DNA from: Candidatus Woesearchaeota archaeon
Lineage (GTDB): Archaea; Nanobdellota; Nanobdellia; SCGC-AAA011-G17; JAGVZF01
Assembly (NCBI GenBank): GCA_016185565.1
Contig: JACPNH010000049.1
Span: forward strand, 1 to 42,139
Reading direction: 5' to 3'
DNA length: 42,139 nt
In this document: in pieces, positions 2,485-31,808 of the stretch
Layout: the number at the start of each line of letters is the position of its first letter
Position numbering within the stretch: the first letter of the stretch is position 1
Notes under the pieces: model-generated
The model's database searches: none
The model's input: the letters and a program-made list of their open reading frames with translations, nothing else
Told to the model about the DNA's origin: nothing
Position numbers and translations under genes: made by a program

Positions 2485-4017
2485 ATGATGAATAGGGAAG
2501 GATTAATAGAAACAATAAAGAATTTCCATGATGAAATTTATCGCGAGAATTATTCACATTTAATAGGACTAAAAGAAGACCTTAATGAAACTAAAATATA
2601 TAGCAAATATCAATATCTTTTCACAAAAGAAAATATAAAATTTCTTAAAGATTTGGTGGCAAAGTCTACAGCCTTAGAAAAAAGAAAAAATAACTATCTT
2701 ATTGGGTATGTGATTGGAAATTTCGTGGGGCAAAAATTAAGTAAAATAAGCGATGAGGCAGCTGCTTTCGAGGCGAAGGCATTTGTAGAGTTCAAGGGAA
2801 ATAAAATTCCTTATAGGGGATTAACAAAAATAATGAACAATGAAGACAATAAAGAAAATCGGGATCTGCTTTATGAAGCCCAAAAACCCATAAAACTTAA
2901 ATTGCTAGATTACAATATAAAGTACTTGAAACAAGAATTAAAGCTTCTAAATGATTTGGGGTATAAAAGTTATATTGAACTTAACTCTGCAATAAAAGAG
3001 GTTGATTATTTCAAGCTCAGAGATGAGTTAAAAGCTTTCTTAGTAGAAACTGATGAAAAATTCACTGTTTTAATCCATGAGGCAATGAAAAGCATCAATG
3101 TAAACACAGATGATGCAAGGAATTATGACTGGGGCTATTATGCAAGGCATAAGGAATTTGACGGGGCATTTCCTAAGGAAAATGTTATTAGCACTTTAAA
3201 GAAAACATTGCTTGGAATTGGTTTTAATCTTGACATACAAAAAAATATTGAACTAGACATAGAAGAAAGGGAAAAGAAAGTGCCAAGGGCCTTTATGATG
3301 CCAATCAAAGTTCCGGATGAAATTAAACTGGTAATTAAGCCTAACGGAGGTTATGAGGATTATAATGCAATATTGCATGAAGCTGGCCATGCGGAGCATT
3401 ATGCTCATGTAAATCCTGACCTAGACTATGAATTCAAGCATTTTGGAGACCATAGCGTTACTGAAATCTTTTCTTTCTTATTTGATAATTTGATGCAAGA
3501 TCCAAATTGGCTTAAAATCCATACAAGAATGAACAATCAAGAAATTGAAAAATTTGTAAAAGAAAACTATCTACAGGACTTGTTTATGTTTAGAAGGTAT
3601 ATAGCCAAGTTAATCTATGAATTGAAATTATTCAGCGATGACTTAAGGAAACTAGACAGCAATTTCAACCCAGCAAAGGGCTATTACAAGAATTTTGGAG
3701 AGTGTTATAGCGACATTTTAAGCAAGGCAACTAAGGTAAAATATCCCAAAAGCTCCTATTTAATAGACTTAGACGGAGGGTTTTATGTTGCGGATTACTT
3801 AAGGGCCTGGATTGGGGAAAGGCAATTAAGACACAAACTAAAACAAGATTATGGTACAGAATGGTTTAAAAACAAGAAAGCAGGAGAATTTTTAAAAAAA
3901 CTATATTCTCTTGGAAATAGCAAGCATATAAATGAATTAATGCAGGAATCTGGATTTAAAGGTCTTGACACAATTTATATTTTTAGAGATTTTAAGGATT
4001 TCTTGGACAAGGCTTAA
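2485..4017 (+). CDS. Zinc metallopeptidase, M3/oligoendopeptidase-like (HExxH)
   Basis: A 510-aa soluble protein with ILHEAGHAEHY (HExxH) in the C-terminal half and a helical context like PepF-type enzymes. The family assignment is tentative. Confidence 0.5.
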   Translation: MMNREGLIETIKNFHDEIYRENYSHLIGLKEDLNETKIYSKYQYLFTKENIKFLKDLVAKSTALEKRKNNYLIGYVIGNFVGQKLSKISDEAAAFEAKAFVEFKGNKIPYRGLTKIMNNEDNKENRDLLYEAQKPIKLKLLDYNIKYLKQELKLLNDLGYKSYIELNSAIKEVDYFKLRDELKAFLVETDEKFTVLIHEAMKSINVNTDDARNYDWGYYARHKEFDGAFPKENVISTLKKTLLGIGFNLDIQKNIELDIEEREKKVPRAFMMPIKVPDEIKLVIKPNGGYEDYNAILHEAGHAEHYAHVNPDLDYEFKHFGDHSVTEIFSFLFDNLMQDPNWLKIHTRMNNQEIEKFVKENYLQDLFMFRRYIAKLIYELKLFSDDLRKLDSNFNPAKGYYKNFGECYSDILSKATKVKYPKSSYLIDLDGGFYVADYLRAWIGERQLRHKLKQDYGTEWFKNKKAGEFLKKLYSLGNSKHINELMQESGFKGLDTIYIFRDFKDFLDKA

Positions 4018-5665: not shown

Positions 5666-6703
5666 ATGATTTCGAGAAGAAAATTTTTACAATTAACAGG
5701 TGCGACTGTTGTAAGCTTAGCAGCTAGTACTGCTTATACTGACTTGTTCCACCACCCTCTGCCATATCTTGATGAAAACAGAAGAACTGAAAAAAGAGTG
5801 TATGGAAGTAACCTCTATGAATTGCATCCAGCAAGAGCTGTTGCAGCATTAGAAAATGATGAAGAATCTGTAAAAATTTTTGATAGTTTAATAGACCTAC
5901 TAGAAGACAGCCTTAACTCTGCCTACGAATACAAGAGCAGAGAAGATTATCTTGTAAATACAGTATTAGAATACTCTAGAAGATTTTCCAGAAAGACTGC
6001 AACAAGAAAAGAGATTAATGTAATAAACAATGGAATACTTTTACCAAGAATTATTGGGTTAAGAGATATAATAAAACAATTAACACAATTTGCATTCTAT
6101 AGTCTAGAAGGCAGGCATGATACATATCTTGGAATAGGAAATGAGAGATTTGCGATTCCTGAATCTTATTTCCCTACTCTAAAAAGCTACGAATCAAAGA
6201 CTAAGGCCCTAAGAATATCTAGATCTTCAGAAGACAATGCTAAAAGACTTGTAGCCAATACAATCTATAATTTATCAGCAAACATAAAACATATCATAGA
6301 TGTTGCATCGGAAGAGAATGTACTATTAAACATACTGCTTGGTATAGCAACACTAGAATCTCTTGGAAACCAGTATAGCGTAGGAGTCGTTGGTGAAGTT
6401 GGAATGTTCCAGATAAGGCCTGATGTTTCCGAACTTGTGGCAAGAAAATATTCAGATAAATTTCAATTATCTTCACCACAGGAAGCACTAGAAAACATAG
6501 TAAGATATCCAGATCTAAATGCAAGGTTTGCAGCCATCTTGTTAAATGAGTGCAAGGTTGATTATCCAGAAATAGCACTAGCCTACCACAAAGGCCTCAC
6601 TAAGTTCAAATCATTAGATGAAGAAAGTCGAAGGAACCATTGGTATGTGGAAAAATTTTGTAAAGTCTATAATGTGCTGGAAGAAAGAGCATACCTATCA
6701 TAA
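5666..6703 (+). CDS. Tat-signal secreted lytic transglycosylase (SLT domain)
   Basis: MISRRKFLQLTGATVVSLAAS matches the twin-arginine consensus S-R-R-x-F-L. The C-terminal part has GIATLESLGN (catalytic Glu-Ser), GEVGMFQIRP and ALAYHKG, which are the three SLT motifs. Confidence 0.75.
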   Translation: MISRRKFLQLTGATVVSLAASTAYTDLFHHPLPYLDENRRTEKRVYGSNLYELHPARAVAALENDEESVKIFDSLIDLLEDSLNSAYEYKSREDYLVNTVLEYSRRFSRKTATRKEINVINNGILLPRIIGLRDIIKQLTQFAFYSLEGRHDTYLGIGNERFAIPESYFPTLKSYESKTKALRISRSSEDNAKRLVANTIYNLSANIKHIIDVASEENVLLNILLGIATLESLGNQYSVGVVGEVGMFQIRPDVSELVARKYSDKFQLSSPQEALENIVRYPDLNARFAAILLNECKVDYPEIALAYHKGLTKFKSLDEESRRNHWYVEKFCKVYNVLEERAYLS

Positions 6704-6819
6704 TCAACAATCACAGTATACACAATAAGTTTTATATATTAGATGTTTTATTGCCTTTTTGCAATGCATAGTTATCTTAAAATAGAAATATGCAGGACTT
6801 ATTCTAGAGGTGAAAGTAA

Positions 6820-8272
6820 ATGGATTTAAAAGAGATTAAAGAGGGCTTGACCTTTGATGATGTGTTATTAGTCCCTAAAAAAAGCCCTGTGGTATCAAGA
6901 AAAGAAATAAGCGTAGAAACAATGCTTACAGAAAAGATAAAACTAAACATACCTATAGTTTCTGCAAATATGGACACTGTAACAGAAGCAAACATGGCTA
7001 TAGCAATTGCAAGACAGGGCGGTATTGGAATTATCCACAGATTTTTACCAATAGAGAAGCAAGTAGAAGAAGTTTTAAAAGTAAAACGCTCTGAATCTTT
7101 TATTATAGAAGAGCCTGTAACAATAAACCAAAATAAAACACTGAAAGATGCCAAACTTCTAATGAACACTTATGATGTTGGTGGAATTATAGTTGTAGAT
7201 GACAACAACAATATTGCAGGTATTTTGACCACTCGAGACACTTTATTCCAAGAAAATTTAAGGTTAAAAGTAAGCGAGGTGATGACAAAAAAAGAAAGCC
7301 TTATCACAGCACCTTTTGGAATAACTATGGATGAGGCTAAAAAGGTATTAAGAGAAAATAGAATTGAGAAATTGCCCTTGCTTGATGGGGATGGAAAGCT
7401 CCGAGGATTAATTACAACTAAAGACATAACAAAAAAAGAAAAATACCCAAATGCAAGCAAAGATATTAAGGGAAGGCTTCTTGTAGGGGCTGCAATTGGT
7501 GTTAAAGACGATTATGTAGAAAGAGCAACTGCATTATTAAGAGTTGGTTGTGACGTTTTAGTTGTTGACATTGCTCATGGACATAGTGATACTGCAATAA
7601 AAGCAATAAAAGAAATCCGCAAGAACCTTGGAACAGTCCAAGTAATTGGAGGAAATGTAGCAACAGGCGAGGGAACTAAAGATTTGATTAAGGCTGGCGT
7701 GGATGCAGTCAAAGTAGGGGTGGGTCCCTGGTGCCGTCTGTTCAACTCGGATAGTCACAGGGGCAGGAGTTCCTCAATTAACGGCAATAATGGAATGTGC
7801 TAAAATTGCTAGTAAAGAAAATATTCCAATAATTGCTGATGGTGGTATAAGAAATTCTGGCGATATTACAAAGGCTTTAGCATCTGGAGCATCTTCAGTA
7901 ATGATTGGCAGCTTGCTTGCTGGAACAGAGGAAAGTCCTGGTGCAATAATAATGAGACAAGGAAAAAGATACAAGATTTATAGAGGAATGGCATCATTTG
8001 AAGCTAACTTAAAAAGAAAACAAAAACAAAATAATAACTTTGAAATTGACACTGATTTGTTAGACATGACACCAGAAGGCGTAGAGAGTTTGGTTGCTTA
8101 TAAGGGATACACATCGGAAGTCATTACACAATTAATGAATGGTTTGAAATCCGGAGTTTCATATTGTGGATCAAGAAACATTAAAGAACTGCAAAAAAAT
8201 GCAGAATTCATTAAGATGAGTTTAGCTGGGTTAAGAGAAAGTTTTCCACATGATGTTGATGTTCTTAAATGA
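6820..8272 (+). pseudogene. guaB: IMP dehydrogenase with CBS pair, interrupted by a 1-nt frameshift at about 7726-7729
   Basis: ORF 6820-7803 reads LTFDDVLLVP...SANMDTVTE...GIGIIHR...CBS...VVDIAHGHS...VKVGVGP and then goes out of frame. The frame of ORF 7790-8272 is open from 7718 and reads [27 protein letters not shown]...[11 protein letters not shown]...GSLLAG. Deleting one base in the ggtCCCTggt context restores VGVGPGAVCSTR, the catalytic Cys loop. Confidence 0.85.
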
Positions 8273-8300: not shown

Positions 8301-9335
8301 TTATGTCTTATAAATTTCCGTATCAGAATGAAAGGCATACCAAGCAAACCAAAATGCCTTAACAACTTGTAACTCTTGTAGTTTGTTATTACTACTATTG
8401 TCATTTAAGTCATATTCAATATCTCCAGATACCAATTTTCCATTTTTTAAAATAAATTCTTTATCATCGCGATAAAAAATCCTTGCATCGTCTATGCTTT
8501 CATCATAGACTATCAACAAATTCTTTCCATTGAAATTGTCGTTAATTATTTTTTCTCTTGCTATATCGCCCTTTAGATAAGCCTTGAATTTATTATTCAC
8601 TTCGATGCCATAAATTCTTGTCTTTGGGTGGTATGTTGAATCTCTAGTGCTTATTGGAAATAAAATTTCAGCACTTGATTCATAGGTTCCATATGGATAT
8701 GTATCATAATCTCTTACAAACCCCGTGTCCCTTGAAAGCACCTTTGAATTGGGGAAGCTTTTTTTCCAATCCTGCCATGAAGTTATTGTCAATGGCAGTA
8801 TCTCAAGTTTTTGTTCTGCTAATTCTCCAATAATTGCTGTGCCATCCAACTGGCTCCATAGAGTATTCGTGAGTCTGTCGTACATTACCAAATCAGAATT
8901 ATACAATTTTCCCGAAACTCCAAATGTTGTTTCTTGGCCATTAACAACCCTTTTGAAAACAATGCCACTTCCGCATAACGGGCAGAATGTGACTGCTACA
9001 GGCACATTTCCGATTTTATCATTTACAATCTCGTGCCAATTCAGGATTTGCTGTGGGTATGCGCGGGCATCTTTGTTGAATTCGACTCCAAAAACAACTT
9101 CATTGTCATCAAGAAATTTTTCTGCTTCTTGAACAGAAACAAATTTTGGCTTGTCTATGCTAGGGATCGCATCTCTCGGCAGCACATTTATTACATTTTC
9201 TAAAGGAACTATGTGCTTAAATCCATCTGTAACTATAATACTATTCTCTGATTTTAGATTTTCTTTATTTTTATTGGTATTGCAGCCAGAGATCAGCAAT
9301 ATTGCAAAAATCCCTAAAATAAATAAGATTCTCAT
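8301..9335 (-). CDS. DUF3179-family lipoprotein
   Basis: Signal peptide with lipobox LLISGC. Contains RDAIPSIDKPKF...ARAYPQQILNWHEIVND...VAVTFCPLCGSGIVF...FGVSGKLYNSDLVMYD...TLWSQ, the DUF3179 signature. Confidence 0.8.
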   Translation of the reverse strand: MRILFILGIFAILLISGCNTNKNKENLKSENSIIVTDGFKHIVPLENVINVLPRDAIPSIDKPKFVSVQEAEKFLDDNEVVFGVEFNKDARAYPQQILNWHEIVNDKIGNVPVAVTFCPLCGSGIVFKRVVNGQETTFGVSGKLYNSDLVMYDRLTNTLWSQLDGTAIIGELAEQKLEILPLTITSWQDWKKSFPNSKVLSRDTGFVRDYDTYPYGTYESSAEILFPISTRDSTYHPKTRIYGIEVNNKFKAYLKGDIAREKIINDNFNGKNLLIVYDESIDDARIFYRDDKEFILKNGKLVSGDIEYDLNDNSSNNKLQELQVVKAFWFAWYAFHSDTEIYKT

Positions 9336-9502: not shown

Positions 9503-10141
9503 ATGAAACATATTGTTATTGCTTTAGTGAGCGATAATCTTGATCCTATCTTTCTAGGGCTAAAAGAGTTCCTTACAGAAAGAATTATACTTATAACCAG
9601 TTCTAAGGACTACAAGATTGCAGAAAAAGCAAAGGGGGAACTTGAGAAATTCAAGATTGACGTGCAGATTAGGGAAATAAATGATAACTTGTGGGAGAAT
9701 ATATTTAAGATAATATCACAGATAAAAAACCAAGAAGGTGGACCTGAAAAATTGATATTGAATGTTGCTTCTGGGAAGGACCCATTAAAATGCGCTGCTA
9801 TATCAGCAGCTTTCGTTAATGGAATAAAGGCTTTTGATGTCGATGAAAATAAGCCAATGCTGCTTCCTATTTTGAAATTCTCTTATTATAATATCTTGAC
9901 TGACAAAAAAATGAAAATACTGCAATTGCTTTCAGAACCAAATTGTTGCAAATCACTAGAGGAAATTAGCAACAAGACAAAGATGAGCCTTCCCTTAATT
10001 AGCTACCATATTAACGGCACAAAAAAATCAGAAGGTTTAAAGCAACTTGGATTGGTGGATAGAGAAGAAAAGGGCAGTAGGGTTGAAATAAAGTTGACAA
10101 CTCTAGGAAGATTACTGCTTAATGGGTATATATCAAGTTAA
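9503..10141 (+). CDS. Transcriptional regulator with an N-terminal Rossmann-like (CARF/Csa3-like) domain and a C-terminal ArsR-type winged helix
   Basis: The C-terminal part ILQLLSEPNCCKSLEEISNKTKMSLPLISYHINGT...LKQLGLVDREEKGSRVEIKLTTLGR is an ArsR/wHTH pattern. The N-terminal part HIVIALVS...RIILITSS...LILNVASGKDPLKCAAISAAF resembles the beta-strand/GxK pattern of Csa3-type ligand-binding domains. The N-terminal call is tentative. Confidence 0.55.
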   Translation: MKHIVIALVSDNLDPIFLGLKEFLTERIILITSSKDYKIAEKAKGELEKFKIDVQIREINDNLWENIFKIISQIKNQEGGPEKLILNVASGKDPLKCAAISAAFVNGIKAFDVDENKPMLLPILKFSYYNILTDKKMKILQLLSEPNCCKSLEEISNKTKMSLPLISYHINGTKKSEGLKQLGLVDREEKGSRVEIKLTTLGRLLLNGYISS

Positions 10142-10152
10142 ACTACACAAAG

Positions 10153-11115
10153 CTAACCTAGAGTTTTCTTTCTCCTCAAAAATCTGACTATTAGAATAAT
10201 TAAAACCAACAAAACAATAAATCCGATAATATTATACAAGAATAGATTTTTTGTCAAATTTCTTTGCAGGCTATAAAAGTATTCAGTAGTCTTTAAGAAA
10301 TCAAAGGCATTGATGATGTAAGTTCCTCTATACAATATCATTAATGCCCCTGCAGCAATTATTAATATGCCAGCAATAAGATTAGTTGAATGTACCCCAA
10401 AATTCCCAATCTTAAATTCTTTTCCACGTAATAGTTTCGAATTCGTAAAATTGTATTTATCCCAGAAAAATGAAAGCAAAAACAATGGCACAAAAACCCC
10501 TATGGAATACGCAAACATAAGCAATCCAGCTTTAATGTAGTTTCCAAGGACTGAGGCTATAGTCAATATTCCTGCTAAAATAGGGCCTGCACAAACATTC
10601 CACCCAAGCCCAAAAAATATTCCATACAAATAAATTCCAGAAACATCGTGCTTAAATTTTTTGTTTAGTTTTAAGAAACTAAAACCCTTCCCTAGTATAG
10701 TCAGCAATCCGAATAGAACCAAAAAAATTCCTGCTATCAAAGCTAAGTTTGAATTTTCATATTGAAATTGAGCTAGAGTATTTCCTAATTTTGCTGCTAT
10801 TAACCCAAGTAATACAAAAATGGTTGTAAATCCCAAAAAGAATATAAATGTCATCTTTGTTATTTCTTTTTTTTCTTTAAATGTATAAGAGAAAAATGCT
10901 GGTATTGAAACATAACTGCATGGGCTTAGTATAGCCAATAAGCCTGCTAGAAATGCTATTAAAAAACTTAAGCTCCCTAGAAATTGCTTGGCGCTTTCCT
11001 TTTCATACTGCTGGCCTGCTATTATTGCTGGTGGCAAATGAGAGCTAGCACCTACATAATTTATGAAACTCAGAAAAAATAAAATTGCAAGTAAATAAAT
11101 AAAAATTTTTCTCAT
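10153..11115 (-). CDS. ccdA: CcdA/DsbD-family thiol:disulfide electron-transfer membrane protein (copy 1)
   Basis: Polytopic membrane protein with LAILSPCSYVSIPAFF and GLGWNVCAGPILAGIL, the two conserved Cys-containing helices of the DsbD_2/CcdA family. Confidence 0.8.
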   Translation of the reverse strand: MRKIFIYLLAILFFLSFINYVGASSHLPPAIIAGQQYEKESAKQFLGSLSFLIAFLAGLLAILSPCSYVSIPAFFSYTFKEKKEITKMTFIFFLGFTTIFVLLGLIAAKLGNTLAQFQYENSNLALIAGIFLVLFGLLTILGKGFSFLKLNKKFKHDVSGIYLYGIFFGLGWNVCAGPILAGILTIASVLGNYIKAGLLMFAYSIGVFVPLFLLSFFWDKYNFTNSKLLRGKEFKIGNFGVHSTNLIAGILIIAAGALMILYRGTYIINAFDFLKTTEYFYSLQRNLTKNLFLYNIIGFIVLLVLIILIVRFLRRKKTLG

Positions 11116-11130: not shown

Positions 11131-11529
11131 TTAGTTTACTACCACTTTGCCTTTCATATTGCTATGGCCTTCACCGCATGGAACTGTGCACACAAAATTG
11201 AATGTTCCTTTTTGGTCTGCCACAAATTCTACAGTAACAGTTTCCCCAGGATTAATTACTTTGTTTATGTTATAACCAGCAAGTCCAAATCCGTGGGTTA
11301 CATCGATGCTGTGCATCTTTAATATTACACTGTCACCTTCATTTACAGTAATTGTATCTGGAGTGTATTGCCATCTTTTTGCTTCTATGTTAAAAACCTT
11401 AGTTTCTCCTGTTGGCGGCAATGGCGGGGGGCCTATTTTATCTTTTTTTTGTGTATTTTGGGTTGTGTTACTACATGCTGCTATAAATAAAACTGATAAA
11501 ATAAAAAATGCAATAAAATATTTCTTCAT
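11131..11529 (-). CDS. Stand-alone CuA-type cupredoxin lipoprotein (cytochrome oxidase subunit II-like domain)
   Basis: Lipobox FIAAC. The ligand pattern H-x34-C-x3-C-x3-H-x2-M (THGF...FVCTVPCGEGHSNM) matches the binuclear CuA site in identity and spacing. Confidence 0.8.
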   Translation of the reverse strand: MKKYFIAFFILSVLFIAACSNTTQNTQKKDKIGPPPLPPTGETKVFNIEAKRWQYTPDTITVNEGDSVILKMHSIDVTHGFGLAGYNINKVINPGETVTVEFVADQKGTFNFVCTVPCGEGHSNMKGKVVVN

Positions 11530-11530: not shown

Positions 11531-12757
11531 TTAAGTCACCTCCTGATTAGGTTGTTGATTTGATTCCAGTTTAGGCTCTACAACTTTATTGGTATTCAAG
11601 TCTTTGTAAGGAACTTGTAATATATCTAGGTTTCTGAATATATAATAATTATCAGTTTCTATGCTACCTACTTGCGACCATGCTTCTTTTAAGGAACTAT
11701 ACACATCTGCCTCATTACTCATGATGATTGTTGGGGCCTTTGTTATTTTATATTTTGTTATTAATGCTTGGCCCTCTGGGCTGCTTACATCAATGGTCTT
11801 TTCATTTGACAAAAACACTCCAAAATTTAACAATATGGGCTTGTGCAATGAAACATTATAGCAAATGTTGCAACTTTTATCCGTTATATAGGTTAATTCA
11901 ACTAAGCCTCTGACAGAATTGGTTAACAAATCTTTATATGGCGGAGGAGTTTGTCTTACAATATAGCTACTGTCACTTTCTATGCTCCCAAATTGTTTCC
12001 AGTTTGCGATTATCTGATTATCGATATAAGCATCTAAGTCGGAAGAAAATATCATAGTGGGAAGTTTAGTAATCTTATATTTTGTAATAAGTTCCTCAGC
12101 CTGGGTAAATTCTAGAGTTTTTTCATCTGTCATTATGACACCAGCCCTTACTAATTGAGTAATCAACGAGCTTATGTCTGAACAATCCTTACATCCGGAA
12201 TCCTTGATATGAACTAGGCTTACTTTTCCAACTTCTTTGTTTAATACGAGGTCATAATAAACTGGCCTTATATCTTCAAAAACTAAGGTGTCTTCTTTTT
12301 TTATTAGCCCCATCTCTCCTGTTTTGTCTATCTCTCCTGTAACTAAAACTGTAGGTAGTTTAGTAATTTCATTTTTAGAAATCAAGGCCTTTGCCTCAGG
12401 ATCAGAAAATTCAAGTGTTCTTTCGCTAGTAACATCAACATTATTGTCTTTTATTGAATCTATAACCTGATTGAGATTAAAGCAATCCTTGCAATTAGAA
12501 TTTCTCAATATGGTCAGGCTTATTAATGCAGGTTTGCTTTTTTCCTTTGCTTCTGCAAGAGCTTTGGTATAGGACTTTTGTACTCCAACTATGATTATAA
12601 CATTTATTAAAAGTATTATGGCCAAAACAACGCTTAAAATCAATTGGTAGTTTAATTTTGATTTTTTGATTTTTATATTTGGCTGTTGCAATGATTCTTG
12701 CACACCAATAGATTTTTCCTCTTTTTGTTTTTCTTCTGATTCTTCTGTGTTTTCCAT
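11531..12757 (-). CDS. Membrane-anchored protein with three tandem thioredoxin-fold CxxC modules
   Basis: One N-terminal TM helix followed by three units of about 100 aa. Each unit has a CxxC (CKDC, CKDC, CNIC), then ...E(R/K)T(L/I)(E/D)...(S/T)..E...LI(S/T)K(N/Y)(E/K)ITK(L/A)PT, which looks like a cis-Pro loop. Confidence 0.7.
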   Translation of the reverse strand: MENTEESEEKQKEEKSIGVQESLQQPNIKIKKSKLNYQLILSVVLAIILLINVIIIVGVQKSYTKALAEAKEKSKPALISLTILRNSNCKDCFNLNQVIDSIKDNNVDVTSERTLEFSDPEAKALISKNEITKLPTVLVTGEIDKTGEMGLIKKEDTLVFEDIRPVYYDLVLNKEVGKVSLVHIKDSGCKDCSDISSLITQLVRAGVIMTDEKTLEFTQAEELITKYKITKLPTMIFSSDLDAYIDNQIIANWKQFGSIESDSSYIVRQTPPPYKDLLTNSVRGLVELTYITDKSCNICYNVSLHKPILLNFGVFLSNEKTIDVSSPEGQALITKYKITKAPTIIMSNEADVYSSLKEAWSQVGSIETDNYYIFRNLDILQVPYKDLNTNKVVEPKLESNQQPNQEVT

Positions 12758-12850: not shown

Positions 12851-13066
12851 CTAACAACCGCCAACCATCTGTGGTAAGTTATTTACATCGTTCAATTCTG
12901 TAGCAATTGAATTTCCTGTAGATACACTCGTTGATTTTGAGTTTGTGCCAAGACTTATTTTTCCTGCGCTCATATCTGTTTTCAATTGCACTAGCTGAAA
13001 TGCCTGCACTGCAGAAATAACTACTAGTATGGCTAACACAGCTATAACCACAATATTTTTATTCAT
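12851..13066 (-). CDS. Small membrane-anchored protein ending in LPQMVGGC
   Basis: A 71-aa protein with an N-terminal hydrophobic helix, a Ser/Thr-rich linker and an extreme C-terminus NDVNNLPQMVGGC. Both termini are paralogous to those of the upstream gene. Only 3 nt separate it from that gene. Confidence 0.6.
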   Translation of the reverse strand: MNKNIVVIAVLAILVVISAVQAFQLVQLKTDMSAGKISLGTNSKSTSVSTGNSIATELNDVNNLPQMVGGC

Positions 13067-13069
13067 TTT

Positions 13070-13774
13070 TTAACAACCTCCTACCATTTCAGGTAAATCT
13101 GCTGAATTAATATCGCCTACACTACTTTTTTGGCCTGATTTTAATTTTTGGATTAAAGCTCGATCATTCAAAACATCTGGGCTTAATTCAAGCCCATTTT
13201 GATTTGCTAATACTGCTTTTTCAACCATGTTCTTTGGGTAGTATATAGACTTCCATTTTGTTAATTCCCAAAGTATTTGCTCATCACTCATTTCAGGATG
13301 GTTTTTGACTAAATATTTTGCCAATCCTTTAAAACTTGCAGCATGACTGCAACCACATAAACTTCTTCCTTGAGAGTCAATTACAGCAGGTGCACTACAG
13401 CAGAATTCACAGCTGATTTTTGTTCCAATATTAATATATCTTGACTTTTCTTCTGAAGTTAAACTGCTATCTTGCACAACTCTATCTAAGGCGGCTAGTT
13501 TACTTAAACTTTTTACAGGATCGTCATAACTAATCCCCAATTCATTACCATAAACTTCAGGGGTTCCTTTTGGGATTAATTTATTAATTATCTCATTTAC
13601 ATCTGCATTAGCACTTAATTTTATTGAACTTGTTGCTGCTCCAGTTGTGAATAATTGATTTCCTGTTAAGGCAGAGATTTGTATTTGATTAAATATAATA
13701 ACAACTGCAACGATGCCAATAAAAACATATCCTGTGTACTCAGAAATTTTTTCTTTTTTATTAGTCGGTTCCAT
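13070..13774 (-). CDS. Membrane-anchored Cys-rich protein ending in LPEMVGGC
   Basis: N-terminal TM helix. The central domain reads ISCEFCCSAPAVIDSQGRSLCGCSHAASFKGLAKYL...MSDEQILWELTKW, which is loosely reminiscent of PCYCGC-motif proteins. The C-terminus is GDINSADLPEMVGGC. Confidence 0.65.
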   Translation of the reverse strand: MEPTNKKEKISEYTGYVFIGIVAVVIIFNQIQISALTGNQLFTTGAATSSIKLSANADVNEIINKLIPKGTPEVYGNELGISYDDPVKSLSKLAALDRVVQDSSLTSEEKSRYINIGTKISCEFCCSAPAVIDSQGRSLCGCSHAASFKGLAKYLVKNHPEMSDEQILWELTKWKSIYYPKNMVEKAVLANQNGLELSPDVLNDRALIQKLKSGQKSSVGDINSADLPEMVGGC

Positions 13775-13805: not shown

Positions 13806-13997
13806 TCTTACCTGTATATAAATCTTTTCTTTAATCTTTAATTTGGCACTGACTTTTTAGTATCGATTTTTCGATTTAATTATTACTACCTAGTTAAATC
13901 GTTAATTATAAAAACTCATTATTAAAATAAACTTTAACATTTTAATAACATAATTCATAATTTGTATCAATACCAAAATAAAGTGTGGAGCGTAAAA

Positions 13998-14090: not shown

Positions 14091-14330
14091 ATGGCAAAAT
14101 CTGTTAAAATATACACTACAAGAACATGCCCGTACTGCCACATGGCAAAGGAGTTTTTCAAGGCAAACGATGTAAAGTACACCGAGATAGATGTTGGCAG
14201 CGACAGGAAGGCAGCTGAAGAGATGATCAAGAGGTCTGGACAGATGGGGGTTCCAGTGATTGATGTAGACGGAACAATAATTGTTGGCTATAACAAGGAA
14301 GCGTTGAAGAAGGCACTGTCCATAAAATAA
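14091..14330 (+). CDS. Glutaredoxin/NrdH-like small redoxin (CPYC)
   Basis: A 79-aa protein with IYTTRTCPYCHMAKEF...GVPVIDVDGTIIVGYN, the classic glutaredoxin fold pattern. Confidence 0.85.
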   Translation: MAKSVKIYTTRTCPYCHMAKEFFKANDVKYTEIDVGSDRKAAEEMIKRSGQMGVPVIDVDGTIIVGYNKEALKKALSIK

Positions 14331-14355
14331 TCTTAAATTTTAATTAAAACAAAAC

Positions 14356-14598
14356 ATGAAAAAGAGGTATCACATCTTTGTCTGCGGAAGATGCGGTTAT
14401 AGGGCTCATTCTAAAGTTACTTGCCCAACATGCCATATCCATCTTGAAGAGCAATGCCATAAATGCTTGAATGCTAAAGGAAATTGTATCTGCAGAATAC
14501 ATGGTCCTTTCAGGGCTGGAAAGCCGATAAAAATAGCCGTGTCAAAAAAATCAAAAGCCAGGTCAAGGAAGACAAGAAAGTCCAAGAAAAGAAGGTGA
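14356..14598 (+). CDS. Zinc-ribbon protein with a highly basic tail
   Basis: Contains CGRCG...CPTCH...CHKC...CIC, followed by the tail KKSKARSRKTRKSKKRR. Confidence 0.55.
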   Translation: MKKRYHIFVCGRCGYRAHSKVTCPTCHIHLEEQCHKCLNAKGNCICRIHGPFRAGKPIKIAVSKKSKARSRKTRKSKKRR

Positions 14599-14602
14599 CT
14601 TT

Positions 14603-15517
14603 ATGTATGATATTATAATCATTGGCGGAGGCCCTAGTGCACTGGCTGCTGCTGTTTATGCTGCTAGGCAGAAGGTTGATTTTATTGTAATAGCTGAAAA
14701 TGTTGGAGGCCAGATTCTTTGGAGTTCTGACATAGAGAATTATCTTGGATTTAAGTCAATAACTGGAATGGAACTGGTGCCAAGATTTATTGAACAAATT
14801 GAATATAATAAAGTGCAAATTAAAGATGAAAAAGTTTCTTCTATAGACAAAAAAGGCAATACCTTTATTGTAAAAACAGACAAAAATAACCCATATGAAA
14901 GTAAAACAATTTTAATAGCCTCTGGAAAAAAGCCTCGAAAATTAAATGTGTCAGGAGAGGATGAATTTCTAGGAAGGGGTGTTTCTTATTGCGCATTATG
15001 CGATGCCGCATTATTTCCAGATAAAAATGTAGCTGTTGTTGGTGGAGGAAATGCAGCCATGGATGCTGCATTATTAATACAAAAATATGCGAAGAAAGTA
15101 TACATAATTTCTATAAACGCTAGCTTAATGGGTGAGCCTTATATGCTAGATGAAATAAGGAAAAGCAACAAAATTGAAGTGATTACAAATGCAAAAACAA
15201 CCATTATTTCTGGCAGTAAATTTGTCACAGGAATTTCAATAGAAGTAGTAAATGAAAAGAAAACAATTCCAGTAGAGGGTGTTTTTGTAGAAATTGGATC
15301 TATTCCTAGTGTTGAATTCGACAACTTGACCAAAAAAAACCGTTATAATGAAATTATGATATATGGCAATGAAACTATGTCGAATATGACTTCTGTTTCT
15401 GGAATTTTTGCAGCAGGCGATGTTACAGATGTTCAAGAAAAACAAGTTATAGTTGCAGCTGGCGAAGGTGTTAAAGCAATTCTAGGAATTTTTAAATATC
15501 TTCAAACTTTGAAATAA
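14603..15517 (+). CDS. trxB: Thioredoxin-disulfide reductase
   Basis: Contains IIGGGPSALAAAVYAAR (FAD), the redox-active CALCDA, VVGGGNAAMDAA (NADPH) and GIFAAGDV. Confidence 0.85.
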   Translation: MYDIIIIGGGPSALAAAVYAARQKVDFIVIAENVGGQILWSSDIENYLGFKSITGMELVPRFIEQIEYNKVQIKDEKVSSIDKKGNTFIVKTDKNNPYESKTILIASGKKPRKLNVSGEDEFLGRGVSYCALCDAALFPDKNVAVVGGGNAAMDAALLIQKYAKKVYIISINASLMGEPYMLDEIRKSNKIEVITNAKTTIISGSKFVTGISIEVVNEKKTIPVEGVFVEIGSIPSVEFDNLTKKNRYNEIMIYGNETMSNMTSVSGIFAAGDVTDVQEKQVIVAAGEGVKAILGIFKYLQTLK

Positions 15518-15582
15518 AAAGAAAAAAGAATTTTAACTATAAAAACAAAATTTATAAAGAGCAAATAAACTATAGTTAATAT

Positions 15583-16125
15583 ATGAAAAAATATTTTTTA
15601 ATACTGTTAATAGTAAGCATAACAATAATAGCTTCCTGCAAAAATCAGGCAAACATTAATAACCAAATAAATACAAATGCAGCAAATGAGTTAGAGGAAT
15701 TCGGCATTTCAATAGGGAATAAAGCCCCGGATTTTGAGCTAAGAGGTTATGACGGGAAAACTATTAGTCTAAGTGTCTATAAAGGAAGCCCAGTAGTTTT
15801 AGATTTTTTTGCTTCTTGGTGCCCTTATTGCAATAATGAAATGCCAAGAATAAACAAAATAGTAAATGAAAAATACCCTAATGTAAAAATAATTGCAATC
15901 AATGACGCGTTTGAAGATGCAAAAACAATAGAAGCCTGGGCAAAAGAAAAAGGATTTGATTTTCCATTGTTAGTAGATCCAGAAGGAAAAGTAAAGGCTT
16001 TATATGCAATTCGTGGACATCCTACCACTATTTACATAGATAAGGAAGGCATTATAAAAGACAAAAGATACGGCTCTGGGGCTAATGCAGTTATTGAAGA
16101 AAACTTAAAGAAGATTACAACTTAA
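15583..16125 (+). CDS. TlpA/ResA-like extracytoplasmic thioredoxin lipoprotein
   Basis: Lipobox IIASC. Contains APDFEL...GKTISLSVYKGSPVVLDFFASWCPYCNNEMP...GHPTTIYID. Confidence 0.8.
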   Translation: MKKYFLILLIVSITIIASCKNQANINNQINTNAANELEEFGISIGNKAPDFELRGYDGKTISLSVYKGSPVVLDFFASWCPYCNNEMPRINKIVNEKYPNVKIIAINDAFEDAKTIEAWAKEKGFDFPLLVDPEGKVKALYAIRGHPTTIYIDKEGIIKDKRYGSGANAVIEENLKKITT

Positions 16126-16160
16126 ATTTAAAATAATTTTAAAAGACAAAAGGAGGGACA

Positions 16161-16733
16161 ATGAAAAAATATTTTTTAATTGGACTTGTTTTTTTGCTAT
16201 TAATCATTTCTAGCTGCAAGAATGCAAATCAAGAAACGAGCAATTCAGATTTAAATGAAAATAAAATAGCAATTGAAAATCAAAACACTATGCAAGAAAA
16301 TCAAAAACAAATAAATACAAACAGCCAAAAAACCAACATTATTACTCAAGAATCATCTTTTTCTGCATCTGGTAATATATTAGCGGGAACTAAAACCCTT
16401 TTTATTGATTTCAACAAAGAGGATTATGACAAAGCGCTTTCAGAAAACAGAGTAATTTTCCTTTATTTTTATGCAAACTGGTGCCCTATTTGCAGGGAAG
16501 AAATAAAACAAACTTATGCTGCATTTAATGGGCTTGGAAATGAAAATGTAGTTGGTTTTCAAGTAAACTATAAAGACTCTAACACAGACAAGAATGAAAT
16601 AGAATTGGCAAAGCAATTCGGAATAACATACCAGCATACTAAAGTAATAATAAAAAATGGAGAAAGAATACTAAAAGATGGAAACTCCTGGAATAAAGAA
16701 ACGTATATTAATGAAATAAACAAATATGGTTGA
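16161..16733 (+). CDS. Thioredoxin-like lipoprotein (WCPIC)
   Basis: Lipobox IISSC, a low-complexity N/Q linker, then IFLYFYANWCPICREE. Its first 20 nt are identical to those of the TlpA-like gene at 15583. Confidence 0.7.
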   Translation: MKKYFLIGLVFLLLIISSCKNANQETSNSDLNENKIAIENQNTMQENQKQINTNSQKTNIITQESSFSASGNILAGTKTLFIDFNKEDYDKALSENRVIFLYFYANWCPICREEIKQTYAAFNGLGNENVVGFQVNYKDSNTDKNEIELAKQFGITYQHTKVIIKNGERILKDGNSWNKETYINEINKYG

Positions 16734-17443
16734 ATAAAATGGTGGAAGTCACAATAATTGCAGCTTTTCTTGCGGGTATTGTTTCTTTTTTAAGTCCTTG
16801 CATTCTGCCTTTAATACCAGGATTTTTAGCTTATTTGGCTGGTGTAAATCCAGAAGATAGTTCTGCAAAAGCTAGAACAAAGATGTTCTTAAACAGCTTA
16901 ATTTTTGTATTAGGGTTTTCAGCAGTTTTTTCTTTGCTCGGAGTTTTATTAAATAGCATTCTTGAAAAGAACTCTTATACAATTCAATTATGGCTGAGTA
17001 GAGTTGGTGGTGTTATAATTATTTTATTTGGCTTTTATGTTTTAAAATTAATAAAAATCCCATTCCTTGAGAAGGAACATAAGTTGCAAATAAAGGGATT
17101 AAAGCCAAGCTATTTCGCTTCATTTTTATTTGGGGCAGCTTTTGCCGTCGGCTGGACTCCTTGCGTGGGTGCTGTTCTAGGAGCTATTTTAACTTTAGCA
17201 TTAACAAACCCTGGGCAAAGTTTTTATTTACTTTTAAGTTATGCAATCGGTTTGGGTATTCCTTTTTTAATTGTAGGGATATTTTCAACTAAAGCTCTAA
17301 CCTTAATAAAGAAAAATGAAAAATTCTTTAAATACTTTAATGTATTTGTAGGCATATTTTTAATAACCCTTGGAGTATTGGTTTTTACACAACAATTAAG
17401 TAGGGTTGCGAGTTTGGGTGTTGTTAGCAGATTGGTGCCATAA
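16730..17443 (+). CDS. ccdA: CcdA-family thiol:disulfide electron-transfer membrane protein (copy 2)
   Basis: Contains FLSPCILPLIPGFLAYLAG and GWTPCVGAVLGAIL and has six or more hydrophobic helices. It overlaps the upstream gene by 4 nt. Confidence 0.85.
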   Translation: MNKMVEVTIIAAFLAGIVSFLSPCILPLIPGFLAYLAGVNPEDSSAKARTKMFLNSLIFVLGFSAVFSLLGVLLNSILEKNSYTIQLWLSRVGGVIIILFGFYVLKLIKIPFLEKEHKLQIKGLKPSYFASFLFGAAFAVGWTPCVGAVLGAILTLALTNPGQSFYLLLSYAIGLGIPFLIVGIFSTKALTLIKKNEKFFKYFNVFVGIFLITLGVLVFTQQLSRVASLGVVSRLVP

Positions 17444-24717: not shown

Positions 24718-26004
24718 ATGGCGAAGCAAAAACCGCACTTAAACATAATATTTGTGGGTCATGTAGACCATGGGAAGTCAACTACAGTCGGTAGACTATT
24801 ATACGATACAAAGAATATAGACGATCAAACCTTAAGAAAGTTAAAGGAAAAGGCTCAAGAGCTTGGGAAAGTAGGTTTTGAGTTTGCTTTTGTAATGGAT
24901 CAGTTAAAGGAAGAAAGAGAAAGAGGCGTAACTATTGATCTAGCACATAAGAAATTTATTACAAATAAATATGAGATTACAATTATAGACGCTCCGGGAC
25001 ATAAGGACTTTATTAAAAACATGATCACAGGAGCTTCACAAGCAGATGTTGCTATTCTAGTTGTTGCAGCCACAGACGGGGTAATGGCTCAAACACAGGA
25101 GCATGCCAGACTATTGAAAGTATATGGTGTAAATCAAATAGCGGTTCTAATAAACAAGATGGATGCTGTCAACTATGACCAAAAGAAATTCGATCATATC
25201 AAGAATGACGTGTATAATTTATTGAAAAGCATTGGCTATAATGTAAATGAAATACCATTTATACCAGCTTCCGGATTCAAAGGAGATAATATTGCAACTA
25301 AATCTTCAAATATGACTTGGTATAATGGACCTACATTACTAGAACAATTCGACCATTTCAAGGAGCCAGAAAAACCAATTAGCTTGCCATTAAGACTGCC
25401 TATACAAGACGTATATAACATTACTGGTATTGGGGTAGTTCCAGTTGGCAGAGTTGAAACTGGTGTAATGAAAATAAATGATAAGGTAATAATCGTACCT
25501 GCAAGAGAAGGCAAGGGAGTAACAGGAGAAGTTAAGACAATAGAAATGCACCATGAACAAATACAAGAAGCAATACCTGGAGATAATATTGGATTTAATA
25601 TAAGAGGAATTGGAAAGAAAGACATAGCTCGCGGAGATGTAGTTGGGCATACAGACAATGTGCCAACACTAGCAACAGAATTCACAGCGCAAATTGTAGT
25701 GATAAACCATCCTACAGTCCTCACTATAGGGTATACTCCAGTATTCCACATACACACAGCACAAGTAGCTTGCCAAATAACTAAGATATTGAGAAAAATT
25801 AATCCTGCATCAGGAGAGGTATTACAAGAAAACCCAGACATGTTAAAAAATGGGGACGTGGCAATAGTTCAAATAAAGCCTACTAAACCTTTAGTAATTG
25901 AAAAGCAGAAAGACATTCCACATATGGCAAGATTTGCAGTAAGAGATGCTGGAAACACGGTAGCTGCCGGAATGTGTATCGACTTAGTCAAAAAACAAAT
26001 TTAA
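24718..26004 (+). CDS. tuf: Translation elongation factor EF-1alpha
   Basis: Contains [23 protein letters not shown]...[19 protein letters not shown]...DAPGHKDF...NKMD. An AGGAG SD lies 7 nt upstream. Confidence 0.95.
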
Positions 26005-30545: not shown

Positions 30546-31808
30546 ATGAAAAAACCAAATCATATTATTTTGATAATAGTGCTTTTGGTGCTATTTATTT
30601 TAACTTCTGAATTAATAGAATTTGTAAGGAATAATGTGTTTTATTTTTTGATTCCGTTACTGCTTTCTCTATCTTTAATATTCTGGAAAAAGAAATCAAA
30701 ACTCGATACCTTACTCACAACATTTATATTGATTGTTTTTTTAGCTGCAAGATTAATTTTTAGCAATATAGACCAACCAACATTGGTGCTAAGAACTTCT
30801 GCAATATTATCTTTTTTCCTGTTAAATTTGGTTTTGCTCATAGGACCATGGTCTAGGTTTTCTGATAAAATTTTAAGGCTATATTATTTCAGACGCCGCC
30901 TTGGGGTGAGCGCTTTTTTCTTAGGATGGCTACATTTTACAATTGTGATTTCAAAACTCTTCAATTTAAACATTAAAAATGCTCTTTCATTTGCATTCAC
31001 ATTTTATGGATTTACAGCATTTTTTATAATGTTCTGGATGGCCCTTACTTCTTGGGATTATGTGCAGAAGAAATTCAAGCCATCTTGGTGGAATATACTG
31101 CATACACTGCTATTAATTGCTTACATAGCATTTGCTTACTTATTTTATACATTACAAAAAACATTAAACAATACTTTATTAAAATACCATTTGTATGCTA
31201 TTGCAATATTTGTAGTCTTTTGGATTATGGTTGCTCCTTATTCCATAGTTAAGAAGATAATTAAAACAAACGTGTTTGGGTGGAAACAGTTACATGTTTT
31301 AGTGTATATTGCATATTTCTCTTTGATAGTACATGTTGTATTGCAAGGCACATTAAAGGGTATATTTCTTAATGCAGTATTTTACGGATTAATAGCATTT
31401 GTGGTAGGAAGTCATGCAGTAGGTTGGCTGAAAAAAATAAATGAAGACAATAATATAAATAAAAAAATAAAGTCTATAAACAAGAAGATAAATGAAGATG
31501 AGAAGACATTTATAGGAGTTGCTTATGAAAATGAGTTCCAAGAAAGCATAGGTAAAAAGTTTTACATTAACAATAAGCCAATTGCAGTTTTCAAGCATCA
31601 AGGAAATTTTATAGCAATGTCTGATATTTGCGCACATCAGAAAGGGCCATTGCATAAGGGAAGAATAGTTTATGGGTATGTAGAATGCCCTTGGCATAAA
31701 TGGACATACAACATAAATGATGGATGTTCGCCAAAGCCGTATACAGATTGTGTGCCTTATTACAAAACCAAAGTAAAGGACAGTATAGTTTATGTTTCAA
31801 CAGATTAA
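30546..31808 (+). CDS. Polytopic membrane protein: ferric-reductase/MsrQ-like heme-b domain fused to a C-terminal Rieske [2Fe-2S] domain
   Basis: Contains FRRRLGVSAFFLGWLHF and WWNILHTLLLIAY, a His-bearing helix pattern. The C-terminal part CAHQKGPLHKGRIVYGYVECPWH gives C-x-H-x16-C-x2-H. Confidence 0.65.
   Translation: MKKPNHIILIIVLLVLFILTSELIEFVRNNVFYFLIPLLLSLSLIFWKKKSKLDTLLTTFILIVFLAARLIFSNIDQPTLVLRTSAILSFFLLNLVLLIGPWSRFSDKILRLYYFRRRLGVSAFFLGWLHFTIVISKLFNLNIKNALSFAFTFYGFTAFFIMFWMALTSWDYVQKKFKPSWWNILHTLLLIAYIAFAYLFYTLQKTLNNTLLKYHLYAIAIFVVFWIMVAPYSIVKKIIKTNVFGWKQLHVLVYIAYFSLIVHVVLQGTLKGIFLNAVFYGLIAFVVGSHAVGWLKKINEDNNINKKIKSINKKINEDEKTFIGVAYENEFQESIGKKFYINNKPIAVFKHQGNFIAMSDICAHQKGPLHKGRIVYGYVECPWHKWTYNINDGCSPKPYTDCVPYYKTKVKDSIVYVSTD

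Follow-up and report, generated by a model that had tools for sequence, protein, structure and literature searches.

Several proteins carry a flexible C-terminal end with a terminal or near-terminal Cys, by which sulfur, cyanide, Hg, electrons or Cu are carried between a buried centre and a partner. Arms of this kind are found in DsrC and TusE, HypE (PRIC-COOH), MerA (a Cys pair), mammalian thioredoxin reductase (GCUG), Erv2 (CGC), CCS (CxC) and CTR1 (HCH-COOH). Thiol reduction and copper also meet in the copper-induced Scs system, in which a DsbD-type reductase is coupled to Cu(I)-binding proteins of thioredoxin fold (PMC10907172), and in the CcdA/TlpA-ScoI-PcuC assembly of CuA, in which the Cys ligands of copper are maintained in reduced form by a thioredoxin-like reductant, and membrane-anchored chaperones deliver Cu to the CuA cupredoxin domain (PMC6669012). 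The locus described here is found in a contig of 42,139 nucleotides (nt) from Candidatus Woesearchaeota archaeon (GCA_016185565.1, JACPNH010000049.1), hereafter called the window. It features two adjacent minus-strand open reading frames (ORFs), encoding proteins of 234 and 71 amino acids (aa) denominated L and s, respectively, which share a C-terminal LP[EQ]MVGGC tail (Table 1). L and s appear to be the two signature components of an undescribed extracytoplasmic module, found in DPANN archaea and in bacteria of the Candidate Phyla Radiation (CPR). The interpretation favoured here, to which we give somewhat less than an even chance, is that their tails are terminal-thiol arms handling Cu(I) within a copper- and thiol-protective system at the cell surface, and are kept reduced by CcdA and thioredoxins.

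A sequence-only reading of the window had called attention to the shared LP[EQ]MVGGC ends of the two neighbouring ORFs, and both the ends and their coordinates have been confirmed. The C-terminus is GDINSADLPEMVGGC (...DLPEMVGGC) in L and LNDVNNLPQMVGGC (...NLPQMVGGC) in s. Translating the 42 kb window in all six frames reveals no MVGGC string, nor even a GGC before a stop, other than at these two sites. The same reading had asked whether the motif is found elsewhere and keeps its position. It recurs outside the locus, is strictly C-terminal, and is nearly invariant across two domains of life. Homologues of L were searched, obtaining 173 matches at E <= 1e-3; C-termini were counted on the 120 matches listed, and 113 of these end in MVGGC. 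A HMMER profile search of 1.84 billion cluster representatives retrieved 322 representatives for L. Among the 146 new ones inspected, each standing for a 50%-identity cluster, 115 end in GGC and 15 more have another x-C end, so that a terminal Cys is present in 130/146. The related x-C termini include MVGAC, MVGSC, QVGSC, WVGEC and MVGDC, and the constant core of the tail is therefore x-V-G-x-Cys-COOH. The Cys is its most constant feature, and divergent members have Q, W or F in place of the Met. In the alignment of L tails P228, G232 and C234 are invariant, and L227, M230, V231 and G233 are conserved in at least 90% of the sequences. In s, G69, G70 and C71 are invariant in the alignments A2 and A3; P65 and M67 never vary in A3, and reach at least 90% conservation in A2.

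Loci encoding L were collected by scanning one genome per GTDB species. The 73 loci found, plus the window, form the set of 74 loci referred to throughout. By label, about 61 of the 73 scanned loci are archaeal, mostly from DPANN lineages (Woese-, Nano-, Aenigmat- and Micr-archaeota, Diapherotrites), and about 12 are of CPR type (Peregrini-, Peri-, Magasanik-, Buchanan- and Parcubacteria). Some (L016, L014, L018, L019, L048, L051, L053 and others) are labelled as uncultured Methanosarcinales, Gammaproteobacteria or Binatia. Their L and s genes, as well as the neighbouring ones, resemble those of Woesearchaeota or Magasanikbacteria, and the labels are probably loose assignments of metagenome-assembled genomes (MAGs).

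In both tails the codons for Val, the two Gly and Cys sample all their synonymous alternatives across the loci, while the residues are fixed. Selection hence acts on the peptide and not on the DNA. The hypothesis that the Gly-Gly pair is kept merely because its codons overlap a Shine-Dalgarno site was rejected, since spacing and codons differ between loci and the peptide is constant. Rare variants of the tail are paired in the L and s proteins of the same genome. Both end in QVGGC in L039, L042 and L084, both end in MAGGC in L047, and both have lost the Leu-Pro dipeptide in L054, L065 and L069. The pairing points to a common partner of the two tails, or to contacts between them. Additional tail-bearing sequences were noticed in some loci. 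L054, for which positions 6608-6844 (plus strand) were noted, hosts two complete L/s pairs. L069 encodes a 115-aa protein (3155-3511, plus strand) having a small folded domain and ending in GIGMVGGC. A short Met/His-rich ORF of L003 (762-1028, minus strand), ending in SSGGMVGGC, may be spurious. A Cys-rich membrane protein of 159 aa found in L061 (11165-11665, minus strand) ends in ILPQMVGGCQGSGNGC, and the tail is there not terminal.

The sequence-only reading knew of no described family or sorting signal with this terminus. This is still the case, as no Pfam or NCBIfam record corresponds to it, and no paper on the motif or the module was found in the literature searched. Known types of signal were compared one by one with the tail and set aside. 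The motif is located at the extreme C-terminus past a polar, disordered linker, and not at the N-terminal position of a lipobox. It reads LPxMVGGC, not LPXTG as in sortase signals, and the stop codon comes immediately after its Cys, both in L and s and in their homologues. Archaeosortase, exosortase and rhombosortase signals (PGF-CTERM, PEP-CTERM, GlyGly-CTERM), in which a transmembrane helix and a basic cluster come after a short motif, were discarded, as nothing follows the motif here and the sole transmembrane helix is N-terminal. Prenylation signals of the CaaX or Rab type, having a Cys at position -4 or CC/CXC ends on cytosolic proteins, do not fit a tail whose only Cys is terminal and belongs to the extracytoplasmic side of a membrane protein having its N-terminus inside.

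The protein s is little more than an anchored tail. In the AlphaFold2 model a helix (residues 3-33) is followed by 38 residues devoid of secondary structure, and the predicted local distance difference test score (pLDDT) is lower than 50 at residues 41-60 and about 50 across the tail. Exactly one Cys is found in 128/139 s proteins. ORFs of 61-115 aa built in the same way, with a membrane helix at the N-terminus, a linker rich in Ser, Ala and Gly and the tail shared with L, follow L in 69/74 loci. The sequence-only reading made its idea depend, among other conditions, on expression of the small ORF, and the latter is conserved, already called as gene HYX18_04465, and preceded by a Shine-Dalgarno site. 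In the window the TAA stop of L, a single AAA codon and the ATG of s lie in the same frame, an arrangement not conserved at other loci. Pfam and NCBIfam searches with s returned only noise (DUF6550, 14.9 bits against a cut-off of 27; PRK13685, 13.5 bits against a cut-off of 432). In CPR bacteria s proteins feature cytoplasmic N-termini of 40-50 residues, and some begin with HHDHCxxC.

L and s had been described as paralogs, the short protein corresponding to the long one without its central domain. Such definition is overstated, because in the comparison of the two profiles by hhalign the alignment is confined to the nine final columns (probability 95%, E 3e-8). The tails are significantly similar and the anchors weakly so (probability 73%), which is what survives of the proposed kinship; paralogy over the full length is not detectable, and the view of s as a shortened L is not borne out.

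The N-terminal hydrophobic helix, followed by NQIQI in L and QAFQL in s, is present as originally described, and N29 of L hardly varies in alignment A1. Basic residues are on average more numerous before the anchor than after it, clearly in L (2.9 versus 0.7) and weakly in s (2.4 versus 1.6). Both proteins are on this ground predicted to have the N-terminus inside and the C-terminus outside the cell. The extracytoplasmic, flexible nature assigned to the tails agrees with this charge bias, strong for L and weaker for s, with the extracytoplasmic location of the redox partners described below, and with the disorder predicted for both tails. The anchors resemble also that of a triple thioredoxin-like protein encoded in the same cluster. 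By hhalign, the anchor profile of the latter matches that of s with a probability of 94.6% (E 7e-8) and that of L with a probability of 93% (E 3e-7), the value for s against L being 73%. Four control anchors from the same loci were compared. Three scored 0.5-19%; for the fourth (gene cluster c5) the value was 52% with s and 12% with L. What L, s and the triple thioredoxin share is a helix terminated by [F/L]-[N/Q]-[Q/A]-x-Q-[I/L]..S, as in VIIFNQIQIS, SAVQAFQLVQ, LAYNQFQIFS and VVFQAFQAFT; for the triple thioredoxin the motif was noted in the window and in L001-L045. The likeness of the three anchors suggests that they may pack together, or onto the same membrane partner, in a three-protein membrane assembly. 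The VQA tract of s was also considered as a signal-peptidase site. This was rejected because the equivalent tracts of L (FNQxQI) and of the triple thioredoxin (FQAFQA, YNQFQI) lack small residues at positions -1 and -3, and because of the 40-50 residue cytoplasmic N-termini of s in CPR bacteria.

L is 100% identical to the product HYX18_04470 of a Candidatus Woesearchaeota archaeon MAG. Its CEFCC...CGCSH core is present as described in the sequence-only reading, and C122, E123, C125, C126, C140, C142 and H144 are invariant among 38 diverse homologues. Of the L proteins ending in Cys, 221/246 have exactly six Cys, namely the tail residue and five more in the core. A model of L was built by AlphaFold2 from the alignment of the 38 sequences (mean pLDDT 87). 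It features a helix at residues 7-40, a very confident all-helical ectodomain spanning approximately residues 50-220, with the cysteines gathered in a small knuckle region, and a tail predicted to be disordered (pLDDT lower than 50 at residues 224-227 and 229-234). No Pfam-A or NCBIfam family matches L at E <= 0.1, and the Pfam column is empty for every L and s homologue in the precomputed annotation. Searching the PDB with the sequence profile gave nothing below E = 1, the first hit being a chance match to CsdA (E 1.3). The best Foldseek match of the model in the PDB has an E-value of 0.9 and a template modelling (TM) score of 0.17. Judging from the model, the ectodomain may represent a new all-helical fold.

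Known families were discarded on the same grounds. L does not match at E <= 0.1 the PCYCGC-motif lipoproteins (PF13798), considered for their CGC motif. It is not a member of the thioredoxin superfamily, whose fold has a CxxC at the N-terminus of helix 1, the model being all-helical and thioredoxin Pfam matches being missing, and a DsrC fold found no backing in the PDB profile and Foldseek searches. Some L proteins have His-rich cytoplasmic N-termini. The domain scan of ten long L fusions revealed no informative domain, but one FKBP and weak noise. A second CEFCC string in the window (25669-25809, minus strand) belongs to a short spurious reading frame.

Table 1. Coordinates of the L/s genes, their parts and the surrounding thiol-redox genes in the window
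Feature	Position	Strand	Basis
L, 234-aa single-pass membrane protein (N-terminal anchor, all-helical Cys-rich ectodomain, disordered linker, LPEMVGGC tail)	13070..13774	-	ORF
L anchor, about residues 14-36, including juxtamembrane F-N-Q-I-Q-I (residues 28-33, nt 13676-13693)	13667..13735	-	
Cys-rich core of L, C122-E-F-C-C126 ... C140-G-C142-S-H144	13343..13411	-	alignment
L tail L-P-E-M-V-G-G-C, followed by stop TAA (13070-13072)	13073..13096	-	
GGAGG Shine-Dalgarno of s (10 nt before its ATG), contributed by the two Gly codons of the L tail	13077..13081	-	sequence
s, 71 aa (membrane helix, Ser/Ala/Gly-rich disordered linker, LPQMVGGC tail, single Cys)	12851..13066	-	ORF
s tail L-P-Q-M-V-G-G-C, followed by stop TAG (12851-12853)	12854..12877	-	
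TATA-box-like ATTTATATA, candidate archaeal promoter 41 nt upstream of the L start	13815..13823	-	inference, read from sequence
Membrane-anchored triple thioredoxin-like protein (PDO-like), CxxC motifs CKDC, CKDC, CNIC	11531..12757	-	Pfam thioredoxin families; NCBIfam PDO, E 3e-7
Lipoprotein cupredoxin, CuA-type ligands H...C-x3-C-x3-H-x2-M (HGFG...CTVPCGEGHSNM)	11131..11529	-	sequence
CcdA/DsbD-type membrane thiol-disulfide transporter, last of the minus-strand cluster	10153..11115	-	Pfam DsbD_TM, 1.4e-14
Divergent thiol-redox genes	14091..17443	+	Pfam and NCBIfam matches, gene clustering
Glutaredoxin	14091-14330	+	
Thioredoxin-reductase-like flavoprotein	14603-15517	+	
ResA/TlpA-like lipoprotein	15583-16125	+	
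Thioredoxin-like lipoprotein (ResA/TlpA-like)	16161-16733	+	
Second CcdA	16730-17443	+	

The gene neighbourhood is rich in thiol-redox functions. The sequence-only reading had mentioned adjacent Trx-fold, cupredoxin and CcdA proteins, and these are present as a three-CxxC thioredoxin-like protein, a cupredoxin and a CcdA/DsbD_TM protein. The genes of the minus-strand cluster follow each other in the order L, s, triple thioredoxin, cupredoxin, CcdA. The ORFs of all 74 loci were clustered. The conserved arrangement starts with an M56/M48 BlaR1-like peptidase (34 loci) and a BlaI-like repressor (33 loci), and continues with L, s, the triple thioredoxin (53 loci) and CcdA (47 loci). The regulatory pair is divergent from L in DPANN archaea and co-directional with it in CPR bacteria. 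The triple thioredoxin is mostly found directly after s, retains all three CxxC motifs, and is the likely redox partner of the tails. Optional genes are inserted at two points, a small GGGCGV lipoprotein and a monothiol thioredoxin-like protein between s and the triple thioredoxin, and a cupredoxin before CcdA (20 loci). The window cupredoxin matches Cupredoxin_1 (2.5e-13) and COX2 in Pfam, and the C-terminal regions of NosZ and CoxB in NCBIfam; fold and ligand pattern are those expected of a CuA-type protein, to which class it is assigned by sequence.

The monothiol protein (cluster c6) is membrane-anchored, and is encoded directly downstream of s in 24 loci (L008, L011, L012, L014, L016, L018, L019 and others), not including the window. 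In 21 of the 24 members the active site is WCxYT instead of CxxC, and a second conserved Cys is found one to few residues before the C-terminus (...L[ST]GC..). The lipoprotein located between s and the monothiol gene (cluster c13; L011, L014, L019, L027, L028, L032, L036, L070) is about 70 aa long, and has a lipobox L[AV]GC and, internally, an invariant GGGCG[VR], which likewise presents one reactive-looking Cys among Gly residues. Five loci (L004, L010, L020, L030, L031) host membrane-anchored proteins (cluster c19) which are rhodanese-like by eye and have a C-terminal Cys (...GEFGC or ...GTC); their genes lie in a divergent BlaI-M56-DsbA-CcdA operon. Lgt genes (cluster c12) are found within the island in 8/74 loci and in L074-L077, L082 and L086. 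The hosts include DPANN archaea, and the genes often adjoin cupredoxins. NCBIfam scans of clusters c5, c10 and c23, of the monothiol thioredoxin and of the DUF3179 protein provided no names.

Other genes of the window deserve mention. The CcdA end of the cluster is flanked by a DUF3179 lipoprotein (8301-9335, minus strand; E 2e-103). At the same end, an ORF at 9503-10141 (plus strand) encodes an HFX_2341/Csa3-like N-terminal domain fused to an ArsR-type helix-turn-helix regulator, which could control the operon in place of BlaI/M56 or CsoR. An 80-aa ORF (14356-14598, plus strand), inserted between the genes for glutaredoxin and the thioredoxin-reductase-like flavoprotein, has about ten Cys, a CxxC-rich, zinc-ribbon-like N-terminal half and a Lys/Arg-rich tail, and matches no family. 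IMP dehydrogenase is split into two overlapping plus-strand ORFs in different frames. The first (6820-7803) covers profile positions 1-176 and the CBS domains, the second (7790-8272) positions 197-345. A frameshift, a split gene or a mistake in the assembly could each explain the arrangement. Farther away (30546-31808, plus strand) a 420-aa protein combines a ferric-reductase-like transmembrane domain of the MsrQ/YedZ type and a C-terminal Rieske [2Fe-2S] domain, which is unusual for a DPANN genome.

Genes marking copper homeostasis recur in the vicinity of L. In CPR loci a CsoR-family repressor is encoded directly upstream of L, and all five members keep the Tyr-Cys...His...Cys residues; these correspond to the A-X-Y-Z fingerprint that PMC4235346 defines for Cu(I)-sensing CsoR. 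P1B ATPases featuring CPC, MxxSS and an N-terminal CxxC are encoded within 6-10 kb in L040, L043, L069 and L088. In L088 the genes CsoR-L-s-...-CopA are all co-directional. The ATPase of L084 is cut off, and shows CPC and CxxC only, and HMA/HMBD ATPases are found near L074-L077 and L085. Copper markers (cupredoxin, CsoR or heavy-metal ATPase) were recorded in 6-kb neighbourhoods and, for eight neighbourhoods, at 10 kb. They are present in 7/8 of the latter, which by our own estimate, made outside any formal test, is far above expectation for genomes of about 1 Mb. In the sequence-only reading, binding of a metal by the tail, with Met and Cys as Cu(I)-type ligands, was one of several suggestions. 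The CsoR-type repressors, CopA-type ATPases and CuA-type cupredoxins found nearby back the link to copper. An obligatory role of Met as ligand is not supported, given its replacement by Q, W or F in divergent members, and this residue of the tail is more likely, on sequence grounds, to serve recognition than to be a ligand.

A swinging thiol arm is a plausible reading, and the data on structure and gene context all agree with it. L, s and the triple thioredoxin, each having one N-terminal helix with the common Asn/Gln motif, would come together in the membrane as neighbours of each other and of CcdA. The linkers of L and s, ending in x-V-G-G-Cys-COOH, would be thin flexible arms tipped by a thiol. 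The arm thiolate would capture at the outer face of the membrane a thiophilic metal, most likely Cu(I), coming from a CopA-type exporter or from the environment. It might then hand the metal to the Cys5-His site (CxxCC...CxCxH) in the ectodomain of L, and this site could either hold it or pass it on, for instance to a CuA-type cupredoxin. The protein s would be an additional bare arm, conferring extra reach and capacity. Disulfides formed in arm and core by copper or oxidants would be reduced again by CcdA and the thioredoxin modules. A bolder version, which is speculative and in our opinion unlikely, sees s as a ribosomally encoded, membrane-tethered thiol "cofactor", the Gly-Gly-Cys tip of which would shuttle Cu(I), reducing equivalents or both between CcdA, the triple thioredoxin and the Cys5-His domain of L. 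The three anchors, assembled via the Asn/Gln motif, would make up a surface thiol machine specific to the ultra-small DPANN and CPR cells, which would do without conventional thiol buffers and Dsb systems.

Several data weigh against a Cu(I)-handling arm. The tail is not docked to the core in the AlphaFold2 model of L, and the cysteines of the core could instead form disulfides or a structural Zn(Cys)4 knuckle. Since the Met position varies, a Met-plus-Cys chelate is not required. At 6 kb copper markers are present in 24/74 neighbourhoods, and are thus missing from about two thirds of them. The window has the cupredoxin, and neither CopA nor CsoR was found in it. The CsoR fingerprint is not fully predictive of the metal sensed (PMC4235346). 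The most frequent regulator is the BlaI/M56 pair.

Among the alternatives, the one to be taken most seriously dispenses with the metal. The terminal Cys of L and s would cycle between the thiol and a (mixed) disulfide, working as a thiol-disulfide relay or as a tethered redox buffer. The tails would be the protein-borne equivalent of a low-molecular-weight thiol, bringing reducing power from CcdA and thioredoxins to the active site of L, in this scheme a new thiol oxidoreductase, or to surface proteins. The best conserved partners are indeed thiol-disulfide proteins, the triple thioredoxin in 53/74 loci and CcdA in 47/74, and DsbA/GILT-like and ResA-like proteins are found nearby. In many loci s is followed by the monothiol WCxYT thioredoxin-like protein with its own near-terminal Cys, and monothiol proteins of such type typically bind single-Cys partners through mixed disulfides. 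The odd count of Cys in the core of L, to which its tail adds one, and the single Cys of s are in line with this scheme. A hydrophobic M/V followed by Gly-Gly would suit the substrate groove of thioredoxins, and the substitutions seen at Met are easier to reconcile with recognition than with a metal ligand. A relay leaves however unexplained the enrichment of CsoR, CopA-type ATPases and cupredoxins, and the His-rich N-termini as well. L lacks a thioredoxin fold or a recognizable redox cofactor site, and a lone Cys is unable to accept two electrons by itself. On balance, a metal-free relay is regarded as rather doubtful. Alternatively, the thiol may carry sulfane sulfur, as a persulfide, between extracytoplasmic sulfurtransferases, by analogy with the single-Cys arms of cytoplasmic TusE and DsrC. 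The Cys-ending rhodanese-like proteins, a gene matching Pfam Rhodanese in L084, and the origin of many hosts from anoxic groundwater, as stated in the titles of sequence records, all point in this direction; the CsoR family, moreover, includes the persulfide sensor CstR (PMC4235346). Yet rhodaneses are rare (5/74 loci), the CsoR-like repressors retain the His of the copper-type fingerprint, and genes for sulfur oxidation or reduction are missing from the 10-kb neighbourhoods examined. Persulfide transfer has, in our view, a very small chance of being the function of the arm.

Two further hypotheses move away from carriers. L, with s as an accessory, might be the missing extracellular sensor of the short M56 protease in the BlaR1/BlaI-like pair, and report metal or oxidant stress through its Cys and transmembrane contacts. 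A BlaI-like repressor and a sensor-less M56/M48 protease immediately adjoin L in 33 or 34 of the 74 loci, and M56 proteins have a conserved Gly-Cys pair. This explanation is improbable, as BlaI/M56 do not accompany L and s in the window and in roughly half of the loci, and CsoR takes their place in CPR loci; a second, bare tail protein and the tight link to the triple thioredoxin would remain unaccounted for. The tail might otherwise be a processing or attachment signal, similar to a lipobox or a sortase site, the Cys being S-lipidated or the tail transpeptidated in order to fix the C-terminus to membrane, wall or S-layer. The bacterial lipobox follows the pattern [LVI][ASTVIG][GAS]C. M-V-G-G-C conforms to these preferences, and VGGC, VGAC and VGSC roughly fit, but the VGEC and VGDC variants, having E or D before the Cys, do not. 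LPxM resembles LPxT, and Lgt genes are found in the loci listed above. A lipobox acts at the end of an N-terminal signal peptide beside a membrane-embedded h-region, its Cys becoming residue +1, whereas the motif is here at the extreme C-terminus after a polar linker. The hydrophobic segment or charged tail needed after the motif by sortase and exosortase signals is missing, sortase-like genes are not conserved nearby in the 74 loci, and the dominant neighbours are redox proteins. A role in attachment is accordingly viewed as very improbable.

Much of microbial diversity resides in DPANN archaea and CPR bacteria, whose conserved surface proteins mostly lack an assigned function. The L/s cassette is common to two domains of life and is set in a recognizable biochemical environment of CcdA, thioredoxins and copper genes. 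Having a new fold, an invariant arm and such a context, it lends itself to direct testing with recombinant ectodomains and with peptides. Should the arm turn out to transport Cu(I) or electrons, it would represent a new way to protect or supply the outer face of a single-membrane cell, and the first swinging arm encoded as a separate, tethered gene. It would also provide a handle to annotate more than 300 sequence clusters now labelled as hypothetical.

The C-terminal Cys arms known to us are all cytoplasmic or organellar and carried by unrelated folds, and we know of none with a membrane-tethered, arm-only gene, or ending in x-V-G-G-C-COOH. The flexible C-terminal arm with a conserved terminal Cys of DsrC and TusE is matched by L, and the analogy may be one of mechanism, not of family membership. 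Glutathione, bacillithiol and the phosphopantetheine arm of the acyl carrier protein are likewise small, flexible, thiol-tipped carriers, and the Gly-Gly-Cys end is chemically reminiscent of them; unlike these, s is ribosomally made, membrane-tethered and extracytoplasmic. In eukaryotes ERp44, a monothiol (CRFS) thioredoxin-like protein, captures the Cys of the C-terminal tailpiece of IgM by a mixed disulfide. The combination of a monothiol thioredoxin fold and an unpaired Cys on a flexible tail recurs in the many loci where a WCxYT gene follows s. ERp44 however serves quality control in the endoplasmic reticulum, homology does not go further than the thioredoxin fold, and the monothiol gene is absent from the window.

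Scs, known from Salmonella, Proteus and Caulobacter, is similar to the L/s locus in being an envelope operon that combines a DsbD-family reductase and membrane-linked or soluble thioredoxin-fold partners and is linked to copper stress (PMC10907172). Reductase and thioredoxin-fold partner are encoded here too in a single minus-strand cluster, by the CcdA and triple thioredoxin genes, and the first gene encodes in both cases a small membrane protein of unassigned function. The Scs partners bind Cu(I), and an action like the re-reduction proposed above is attributed to Scs in enterobacteria (PMC10907172). No NCBIfam Scs model matches L, s, the triple thioredoxin or CcdA, and none of them is orthologous to ScsA, ScsB, ScsC or ScsD. 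L and s have no counterpart in Scs, ScsA featuring an internal CxxC and no C-terminal Cys tail. The reductase is a minimal CcdA in place of ScsB, and the hosts are DPANN archaea and CPR bacteria in place of Proteobacteria. The likeness to CuA assembly lies in the CuA-type cupredoxin inside the window operon. In contrast, Pfam and NCBIfam give no match to Sco (CxxxC and His on a thioredoxin fold) or to the PCuAC/PcuC family, the cupredoxin is present in only 20/74 loci, and cytochrome oxidase is missing. The pathway surrounding L and s appears to be of a known kind, the extracytoplasmic maintenance of thiols by CcdA and thioredoxins linked to copper; what is new is the pair of families, a putative new fold and a tethered gene encoding only an arm.

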